Origin: Pseudomonas phage HHBS47_1
Reading direction: 5' to 3' (one strand)
Length of the DNA stretch: 64,000 nt
Sequence record: PQ287649.1
Positions 56,391 to 57,715 of the stretch are shown here, in pieces. Under the pieces are notes generated by a model. It worked only from the letters and a program-made list of their open reading frames with translations. It searched no databases and was not told the DNA's origin. Position 1 is the stretch's first letter. Every line of letters starts with the position of its first letter. The translations under genes were made by a program, and so were the position numbers.

Positions 56391-56424
56391 GTAATCAGGT
56401 CTGTATTACTTGGGTGTTTAAGTA
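56391..56424 (+). promoter_or_regulatory. Promoter-like motif instance 8 with upstream dyad GTAATCAGGTCTGTATTAC (candidate operator)
   Basis: GTAATCAGGTCTGTATTACTTGGGTGTTTAAGTA. Nearly identical 35-bp element at 57680..57715. GTAAT/ATTAC are inverted repeats. Confidence 0.5.
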
Positions 56425-56457
56425 CGCAACATTCATTCCTTTTTGGAGGTTTACGCC

Positions 56458-56937
56458 ATGGCTAAACAATCGAACTTCACCATCGCCAACTACAACGCCG
56501 TCCTGGAAGCTGTTAAAGCCAACAACGGTTATGTGGTCGACGTTCACAACAATCGTCGCACTCCGTACCGTGCGGCTGGCATCGCTGCTCTGGTGAAGGG
56601 CGAAAGGGTTACCCCGGTGCTGCTGTGCCATGGTTCCTACTTCTGCCTGAACTCGCTGCACAAGGAAGCCGATGGTTCGGTGACCCTCTCCAGCTGGTCG
56701 GTCGGTGTTACCATCTTCACCCACCAACACGGTGGGCTGGAAGAAGCGATCCAAGCCTACAACAAGGAGCAATCCGAGTGGGCGTTGTCGGGTGGTCAAC
56801 TGATGCATGTACGCATCTTCGACTACACCGACGAAACCGCACCTGTGTTCGGCGAGCCAGTTGATCTGGCAGGCGAAGTCGTGGGTGCGCTGGCAGCACA
56901 AGAGCCGATCGCCAAGGTCGACATCCCTGCTCAATAA
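56458..56937 (+). CDS. Hypothetical protein (159 aa), GC-rich and codon-biased
   Basis: ATG at 56458 with GGAGG RBS. Strong preference for C/G-ending codons relative to neighbours. Confidence 0.7.
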   Translation: MAKQSNFTIANYNAVLEAVKANNGYVVDVHNNRRTPYRAAGIAALVKGERVTPVLLCHGSYFCLNSLHKEADGSVTLSSWSVGVTIFTHQHGGLEEAIQAYNKEQSEWALSGGQLMHVRIFDYTDETAPVFGEPVDLAGEVVGALAAQEPIAKVDIPAQ

Positions 56938-56982
56938 CGAGCAGTTTTCTGTACGTAATCTGACTTCATTAGGAGCAATGCC

Positions 56983-57390
56983 ATGAGTAATGTAATGCAC
57001 GTTAGCACCATCGCCGGTCGTACCGCCCTGACGGTGATCACACCCGACGACCTGCCGGTTACCAACTGGATGGAAAATGTGCTTGCTGCACAGATCCAGA
57101 AAGTGGTTGACGAAGGTAAGGGTTGGCCCAACGACGCCGAGTTCAAGGTGGAGGTTACCTACCACACTTGGCCACAGGGTTGGGACCGGGAAGTGTACAC
57201 GCACTTCTTTACCAACCGCGCCGAGCTGGACTCCTACATCAAGGACCAGCACGAGTGGGCCCGTTGTGAGGACAACATGGTGAAGATCAAGATCTACAAC
57301 TGGGACCTCGGTCCGAACTTCATGGAAACTCGTGAGTTCGGTGGTCCTGAGTTGTGGAACAGCCCTCTGAGCCGTCCTTACTTGACGTAA
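56983..57390 (+). CDS. Hypothetical protein (135 aa), GC-rich and codon-biased
   Basis: AGGAG RBS. Followed by a strong terminator. Confidence 0.7.
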   Translation: MSNVMHVSTIAGRTALTVITPDDLPVTNWMENVLAAQIQKVVDEGKGWPNDAEFKVEVTYHTWPQGWDREVYTHFFTNRAELDSYIKDQHEWARCEDNMVKIKIYNWDLGPNFMETREFGGPELWNSPLSRPYLT

Positions 57391-57398
57391 GGCTAGCG

Positions 57399-57446
57399 CT
57401 ACCTCCCTGCCACTGGCAGGGAGGTAGTACTCCTTTTATTTTTTGC
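57399..57446 (+). terminator. Strong rho-independent terminator
   Basis: CTACCTCCCTGCC-act-GGCAGGGAGGTAG hairpin followed by TACTCCTTTTATTTTTTGC. Confidence 0.85.
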
Positions 57447-57490
57447 TTCATTTCCATTTTTATAGTTCACTCAACACAACGAGCAAAGTA

Positions 57491-57631
57491 ATGCCTGACA
57501 CTAACAACGGTCCTGTGGAAATAAAGATGGAACGTGTGCAGTTCAAAAGAATAAAAGTAAGGGGTCTTCGTAAATTCTGGTTACTCATCAAACGCTTACT
57601 GAGTAAGGACACCGATTATAAGAACACTTGA
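57491..57631 (+). CDS. Small basic hypothetical protein (46 aa)
   Basis: ATG at 57491. K/R-rich peptide. Weak RBS. Confidence 0.3.
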   Translation: MPDTNNGPVEIKMERVQFKRIKVRGLRKFWLLIKRLLSKDTDYKNT

Positions 57632-57679
57632 CGAACGCATGGCTAAGTCAATGGAACTAAGGGTAATTAACTTCTAGTT

Positions 57680-57715
57680 GTAATCAGGTCTATATTACCT
57701 TTGTGTATATTAAGG
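57680..57715 (+). promoter_or_regulatory. Promoter-like motif instance 9 with dyad GTAATCAGGTCTATATTAC (candidate autoregulatory operator) upstream of the RHH gene
   Basis: GTAATCAGGTCTATATTACCTTTGTGTATATTAAGG. Lies 52 nt upstream of the 57767 start. Confidence 0.5.

Follow-up and report, generated by a model that had tools for sequence, protein, structure and literature searches.

Two paralogous 19-mers in an EL-like Pseudomonas jumbo phage as probable cores of phage promoters, one of them before an AmrZ-like gene

The stretch of DNA analysed here (the window) comprises 64,000 nucleotides of Pseudomonas phage HHBS47_1 (PQ287649.1), an EL-like Pseudomonas jumbo phage of the genus Elvirus with approximately 96.5% identity to phage EL. 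It contains the 19-mer GTAATCAGGTCTRTATTAC exactly twice, both times on the + strand: copy 1 (GTAATCAGGTCTGTATTAC) lies at 56391-56409 and has G at position 13, and copy 2 (GTAATCAGGTCTATATTAC) lies at 57680-57698 and has A at this position. Each copy very probably forms the core of a phage-specific promoter, the two promoters being paralogues from a family that a phage polymerase would read, the first preceding the homologues of the EL open reading frames ORF161 and ORF162 and the second preceding the gene of a ribbon-helix-helix (RHH) protein, the homologue of ORF163. Judged by their sequence, the copies arose by duplication and belong to a known family of phage promoters without having been annotated as such before, and what is new is the addition of two divergent members to a family that is already annotated in EL.

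Two members of the Elvirus promoter family

Nine features of the EL GenBank record, one of which precedes ORF159, bear the annotation ‘putative phage promoter’ and have the consensus ATTTTAAACCTACATTATT; the family is said to have been described by Hertveldt et al. in 2005. When the 19-mer is shifted by one base (matrix register 56392-56410 for copy 1 and 57681-57699 for copy 2), it has the core TCA..yCTAyATTAy in common with this consensus, and both copies fit the core consensus of the Elvirus family, WTTTYAAACCTAYATTAY-(5N)-G. Intermediate forms that bridge the consensus and the 19-mer are present in EL, i.e. AACTCAAACCTATATTACC at 84856, TTAATAAACCTATATTACT at 149097 and ATTTCAAGTCTATATTACT at 206521.

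A matrix made from the nine annotated EL sites found eight extra sites, all of them on the + strand and, according to the EL gene tables, all intergenic; a second matrix was made from these 17 EL sites (nine plus eight), with the two tested copies left out. With this held-out matrix, copy 1 ranked 18th (16.5 bits) and copy 2 ranked 21st (14.4 bits) on both strands of the 211-kb EL genome. In the window, copy 1 scored 8.4 bits and copy 2 scored 14.4 bits, the latter being 7th of 127,964 positions, and seven positions reached at least 14.4 bits where 0.225 would be expected by chance. A G six bases past ATTAY, which was not used in the matrix, is present in all 19 of 19 EL sites, both copies included, and falls at 56416 (copy 1) and 57705 (copy 2) in the window, while two weak extra matrix hits in the window, at 46805 and 55829, which look like false positives, are without this G. 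EL carries no annotation for either copy; both are located between genes on the coding strand. Start codons follow the nine annotated EL promoters at 22-85 nt. Here the gap between the 19-mer and the start codon is 48 nt for the open reading frame at 56458 and 68 nt for that at 57767; the distances of 34 and 52 nt given in the first-pass annotation stand if they are counted from the end of the composite of 19-mer and promoter-like motif (~56424 and ~57715), and not if they are counted from the end of the 19-mer itself.

The recurrence that had first drawn attention to the element is real, as are the position of the copies at the 5′ ends of two transcription units and their junction with promoter-like sequence. 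Shuffled sequence gave 0.05 expected matches to GTAATCAGGTCTRTATTAC, with two or more matches in none of 100 shuffles, and no third match was found on either strand of the window with up to three mismatches allowed. The repeat unit had, however, been taken as 19 bp, and the similarity of the copies in fact covers ~64-69 bp, with 56357-56422 aligned to 57646-57714 at 78-81% identity (local alignment with 53 ungapped columns plus a downstream part; blastn over 64 bp). The first of these extended promoter regions (56357-56422, + strand) contains CTAAGG, TTAAC, AGT, the 19-mer and the predicted start G at 56416; the second (57646-57714, + strand), its paralogue, shares the upstream blocks CTAAGG and TTAAC and has its predicted start G at 57705. 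Because the copies are paralogous over ~66 bp, the recurrence of the 19-mer, in which 18 of 19 positions are identical, counts as one event and not as independent evidence. Comparison of six Elvirus genomes showed both copies in the five others as well; copy 2 is invariant in the six, position 8 of copy 1 is G or A, and position 13 of copy 1 (56403) is G in this phage alone and A in the five others.

By analogy with phiKZ, AR9 and phiR1-37, the family would be read early in infection by a virion-packaged multisubunit RNA polymerase. In every one of the jumbo phages that encode their own RNA polymerases, a conserved motif can be computed upstream of the presumed early operons, and wherever transcripts have been profiled this motif is the early promoter consensus (PMC7598289). 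The early promoters of AR9 have the form AAATATATATTAT-(6N)-G+1, and transcription in phiKZ and phiR1-37 starts 6 nt past the consensus (PMC5312081); conservation at the -10, -20 and -30 regions is found in the literature for the early promoters of phiKZ and 201phi2-1. The Elvirus elements resemble the virion-polymerase promoters of phiKZ-related phages in their extended AT-rich element near -10 with a start 6 nt downstream, and AR9 promoters have TATATTA in common with the 19-mer. Early promoters of phiKZ-related phages also lie upstream of small genes of unknown function, as here. The consensus, however, differs from phage to phage, and the promoters of the EL-like phages are predicted ones.

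Transcription would start at the conserved G six bases past ATTAY, i.e. at 56416 and 57705, which amounts to a predicted start-site rule ATTAY-(6N)-G for the Elvirus family. With these starts the 19-mer would span -25 to -7 and the leaders would therefore be 42 and 62 nt long. ATTAC would be the -10-like element of the promoter and GTAAT the AT-rich upstream part of its core. Promoter 1 would drive ORF161-ORF162 up to the strong terminator at 57398-57445, and promoter 2 the AmrZ-like RHH gene and ORF164 up to the palindrome at 58329-58360; the RHH protein would thus be an early gene product.

That a host sigma-70 promoter (TTAACT-18-TATATT) is read here by Pseudomonas RNA polymerase instead seems extremely unlikely. 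A sigma-70 match of 9/12 at 57667-57696 does overlap copy 2, yet there is none at copy 1, and the three sigma-70 matches in the region compare with 2.6 in shuffles. The element also fits the phage promoter family far better than sigma-70, and transcription in phiKZ-type phages is independent of the host polymerase (PMC7598289).

Several points weigh against the assignment of the two copies to a family of early phage promoters. Like the other members they have the core TCAA..CTAyATTAy, the downstream G, the strand, the intergenic place and the distance to start codons, but they are the most divergent members of the family, with TAAT for ATTT and GGT/AGT for AAC, and could form a separately regulated sub-class; together with EL sites 18 and 206521 they make up a small sub-class. 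At 56403 the window has G where all 17 training sites have A (CTA to CTG), and copy 1 scores 16.5 bits in EL versus 8.4 bits in the window, so promoter 1 may be weakened in this phage. Neither a mapped Elvirus transcription start nor an EL transcriptome was found in the searchable literature, and GenBank calls the promoters of the family no more than ‘putative’; we infer the virion polymerase and the early class by analogy. The available Elvirus records are seven in the phage collection, all of them at least 90% identical at the locus, EL itself alone in IMG/VR and two Elvirus clusters alone in the protein database, and with relatives so nearly identical the conservation of the locus carries little information. 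Lastly, it is possible that some protein binds the promoter core as well, which would be compatible with the data presented here.

Seven more members of the family were seen in the window, all on the + strand and all with the G six bases past ATTAY: 24417-24435, 31655-31673, 33067-33085, 34753-34771, 40960-40978, 43569-43587 and 55877-55895. Four of them correspond to EL-annotated promoters and three are unannotated, one of the three lying before the homologue of a GroEL-like chaperonin gene. The family thus has nine members in the window and at least 21 in EL. The member nearest to the copies (55877-55895, + strand, TTTTCAAACCTACATCATT) is of the consensus type, scores 28.1 bits and precedes ORF159/160, and its EL orthologue carries the annotation ‘putative phage promoter’. 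When the genes behind the other family promoters were searched against Pfam, only a PhuZ-like tubulin was seen, below the gathering threshold, with no RNA polymerase signal.

The AmrZ-like protein and the 19-mer as an operator

The gene behind promoter 2 (57767-58114, + strand) encodes a protein of 115 aa, the homologue of ORF163, which had been called an Arc-family RHH protein, rightly so: its score for Pfam Arc (PF03869) is 53.6 bits (E=1.9e-14), where the cut-off is 20.4, and Arc-like PHROG families match too. An AmrZ-like RHH domain occupies residues 16-56, and a strand followed by two helices is predicted for residues 23-57. The closest relative of solved structure is AmrZ of P. aeruginosa (3QOQ, E=2.7e-8), to which residues 15-56 align without gaps. 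The segment SRTADKFVxRxP is common to both proteins and nearly identical, the base-contacting Lys, Val and Arg included, and K21, F22, V23 and R25 are invariant in the alignment. In Arc the DNA-reading residues are Gln/Asn/Arg, and in Mnt they are His/Asn/Arg at the same positions. As far as the alignment tells, the DNA-reading residues of the ORF163 homologue are of the AmrZ type (K/V/R), and not those of Arc or Mnt. The likeness to AmrZ ends past residue 60, where AmrZ has a C-terminal tetramerisation domain and a low-confidence single-sequence model of the phage protein (predicted local distance difference test score, pLDDT, 50.6) has five predicted beta strands.

In the structure of AmrZ with DNA, Lys18, Val20 and Arg22 of the strand read two inverted 5′-GGC half-sites 5 bp apart; the operator is GGC-AAAAC-GCC, a change of GGC to GTC costs approximately tenfold affinity, and AmrZ represses its own gene (PMC3325190). 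The 19-mer has one GGT and no pair of GGC half-sites, and is a poor candidate for the target of the RHH protein because homology predicts the reading of GGC. Binding of the RHH protein to the 19-mer is accordingly unlikely on this comparison of residues and sites, and GGC-type sites, either in host DNA or at 57712-57727 in the leader of its own gene, are the more likely target.

This bears on what the first-pass annotation had made of the element, namely a 19-bp dyad operator over a promoter, present as a pair, to which the RHH protein binds at both copies and so represses its own gene and ORF161-162 as a small regulon. The RHH gene does lie directly downstream of copy 2, and the copies resemble each other (18/19) more than the family consensus. 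Autoregulation at operators that overlap promoters is common among Arc-family repressors, as in the immI region of P22, and the short element beside an Arc-family gene and over a promoter resembles the P22 Arc/Mnt operators. Those operators are ~21 bp long, with paired half-sites, and are bound by a tetramer. Here, in contrast, the arms are of 5 bp with 14 bp between their centres, a spacing not typical of RHH proteins, and the reading residues are K/V/R as opposed to Q/N/R in Arc and H/N/R in Mnt.

The symmetry of the dyad itself does not exceed chance. It consists of only 5+5 bp (GTAAT/ATTAC with a 9-bp spacer), and 5-bp inverted repeats with a spacer of 0-15 bp occur at 1.08 per random 66-bp stretch of the window, with at least one in 56% of such stretches; because they are so frequent, the GTAAT/ATTAC symmetry is no more than chance would give. 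As for the arms, ATTAC on the right corresponds to the ATTAY element, which hardly varies in the family, and is hence promoter core, and the TAAT of the left arm is also present at that place in two other EL family members. Among the 21 EL sites checked, the reverse complement of the right arm stands at this offset in the two paralogues alone, which is a point in favour of an operator, but the copies were duplicated over ~66 bp and represent one event; at the unrelated EL site 18631 the reverse complement of the right arm is present at another offset. At EL 206521, a member of the sub-class agrees with EL copy 1 along 23 nt, TCAAGTCTATATTACTTGGGTGA, but has GATT for GTAA and hence no left arm.

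With the arms spaced atypically, the Lys/Val/Arg triad of AmrZ reading GGC and no GGC half-site pair in the 19-mer, we regard an operator at which the RHH protein represses both units as decidedly unlikely, and a model of operator and autoregulation at the 19-mer is without specific support. The operator pair, the autoregulation and the small regulon that had been proposed give way to duplicate copies of a promoter family member beside a protein with AmrZ-type reading residues. The preferred reading remains that of paralogous phage promoters, in which the GTAAT/ATTAC symmetry would be incidental, making this a case of a promoter core that resembles an operator dyad.

A variant of the operator idea, that the RHH protein binds the variant GTAAT...ATTAC cores before its own gene and ORF161-162 and so switches off a subset of virion-polymerase promoters, we consider very unlikely. 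If it were true, the protein would be the first known trans-acting regulator of the non-canonical multisubunit RNA polymerases in nucleus-forming jumbo phages, and its binding to the core would offer a handle on the shut-off of early transcription.

Candidate targets of the AmrZ-like protein

The AmrZ-type identity of the protein and a GGC-N6-GCC site in its leader are the most useful leads from this analysis. The leader of the RHH gene contains the dyad AAGGC-gtggtt-GCCTT (AAGGCgtggttGCCTT, 57712-57727, + strand), which would be at +8 to +23 of the predicted transcript and may be an alternative operator or a weak 5′ hairpin. As AmrZ autorepresses through inverted GGC half-sites, the GGC-N6-GCC arrangement in the phage leader provides a parallel with amrZ1. 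The form AGGC-N6-GCCT is unique both in the window and in the 211-kb EL genome, in each case exactly at this site, and the AAGGC-N6-GCCTT dyad is invariant in the 6 genomes. From the frequency in the window, the chance of a GGC-N5/6-GCC in a 68-nt leader was calculated as ~0.014.

It is conceivable, if rather unlikely, that the RHH protein autoregulates through this dyad, with the bound protein blocking the polymerase, which would be compatible with the promoter explanation. The reading of inverted GGC half-sites and the self-repression of AmrZ (PMC3325190), the identity of the reading residues of ORF163 with those of AmrZ, and a site that is unique in the window and in EL and invariant in 6 genomes all point this way. 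Conversely, the dyad was noticed after the AmrZ rule was known, there is no second copy to define a motif, and its linker is of 6 bp and G/T-rich where that of AmrZ is a 5-bp A-tract. In RNA the dyad could instead form a weak hairpin ahead of a T-run (it was flagged as terminator-like). The fold of the ORF163 leader is not significant (z = -1.36). The site at 57712-57727 is a better operator candidate than the 19-mer as far as its sequence goes, and we offer it as a lead and not as a result.

Two further ideas about such sites were rejected. A regulon of GGC-N5/6/7-GCC sites is not indicated, the counts in both the window and EL being at expectation, and an explanation of the leader as RNA was dropped with no genuine Rfam match and a fold z of -1.36.

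Three observations on related sequences are recorded here in their own right. Inside ORF159, at 56073-56087, ATGGCGGATCGCCTT has the form GGC-N5-GCC with the exact AmrZ spacing, and its half-sites are kept in EL. Of six WWGGC-N5/6-GCCWW sites in EL, two are located in this 2.5-kb block. Finally, an 8-bp perfect inverted repeat, CTTTGTGT (57699-57706) and ACACAAAG (57749-57756), pairs the start of the ORF163 leader with the bases just before the ribosome-binding site.

The RHH protein might instead be mainly a host-directed early factor that acts on AmrZ-type sites of the Pseudomonas chromosome as opposed to phage DNA, a role that would again be compatible with the promoter explanation and that we hold to be a serious possibility, if somewhat short of an even one. 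Beyond Elvirus, the proteins closest to it over 97 residues come from lytic Pseudomonas phages of 91-95 kb, e.g. SM1_0115 (34% identity, BLASTP E=5e-14). An early-expressed RHH protein that is most similar to AmrZ, Gp53, has been reported (October 2026) from the 94-kb lytic phage PhiPA1019; it binds and represses the host fleQ, pslA, amrZ and ftsZ promoters, and its essential residues are Arg15 and Asn36 (PMC13650114). These two residues land exactly on the numbering of SM1_0115, and because they fit its sequence Gp53 is very probably the orthologue of SM1_0115.

A host-directed role is thus favoured by the best solved relative being AmrZ of P. aeruginosa itself, by nearest non-Elvirus relatives that include this probable Gp53 orthologue, and by the position of the gene behind an early-type promoter. 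Like Gp53, the ORF163 homologue would be an early AmrZ-like RHH protein of a lytic Pseudomonas phage. Unlike the present phage, however, PhiPA1019 is not a jumbo phage, and ORF163 was compared with SM1_0115 in place of Gp53 itself; the two share only 34% identity and align poorly in their C-terminal parts. That EL is classed among the nucleus-forming phages is a further point against it. By analogy with Gp53, action on phage DNA would be no more likely than a host-directed role. An EL-like ‘Arc’ protein with AmrZ reading residues and a relation to the host-directed Gp53 bears on how a jumbo phage may manipulate its host.

The locus and other features of the window

Positions 55800-58400 of the window correspond to EL 163931-166547 and show 94.8-96.8% identity to seven P. 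aeruginosa Elvirus jumbo phages, 96.4% in the case of EL (AJ697969). The genes of the locus are homologues of EL ORF159 to ORF164 and form a + strand block flanked by - strand genes; no Pfam or PHROG family was found for ORF159, 160, 161, 162, 164 or the small open reading frame described below. Behind promoter 1, the ORF161 homologue (56458-56937, + strand, 159 aa) has a strong GGAGG ribosome-binding site, and the ORF162 homologue (56983-57390, + strand, 135 aa) is its weak paralogue (BLASTP E=7e-6). Their G+C contents at third codon positions are 0.67 and 0.73, respectively, versus 0.42 for the RHH gene. The unit ends at an intrinsic terminator (57398-57445, + strand) with a 14-bp stem containing 9 G-C pairs and a T-run after it. 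Between this terminator and promoter 2 there is a small open reading frame of 46 aa (57491-57631, + strand), which is listed as ‘hypothetical protein’ in some Elvirus records.

The ORF164 homologue (58116-58316, + strand, 66 aa) starts one base past the stop codon of the RHH gene. It is followed by a perfect palindrome of 32 bp, CCCCTACCCAGCCGAAAAGGGCTGGGTAGGGG, at 58329-58360 (feature 58329-58380, both strands), which matches itself on the opposite strand and is preceded by TTAAAAA and, on the + strand, followed by a T-run; it probably terminates transcription in both directions where ORF164 and ORF165 converge. The sole Rfam result for the palindrome was a spurious microRNA match, no other Rfam family being matched. 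Phage GXNNE2 has non-aligning sequence in place of 56883-57433; the idea of a mobile cassette bounded by the two promoter repeats was rejected, as this replaced segment is not bounded by the repeats.

Elsewhere in the window, a 940-aa SNF2-like helicase with a Helicase_C domain is encoded at 59455-62277 (- strand). Approximately 250 of its residues, between GSGKA and ...IVTHNT, resemble an inserted, intein-like segment; none of the intein models in Pfam or NCBIfam matched the protein. The homologue of ORF127 (31748-32962, + strand, 404 aa), which gave no match in NCBIfam (Pfam was not run), has a long open reading frame on the opposite strand, and the stretch 32001-33000 inside it has a GC content of 0.597, compared to ~0.48 around it.

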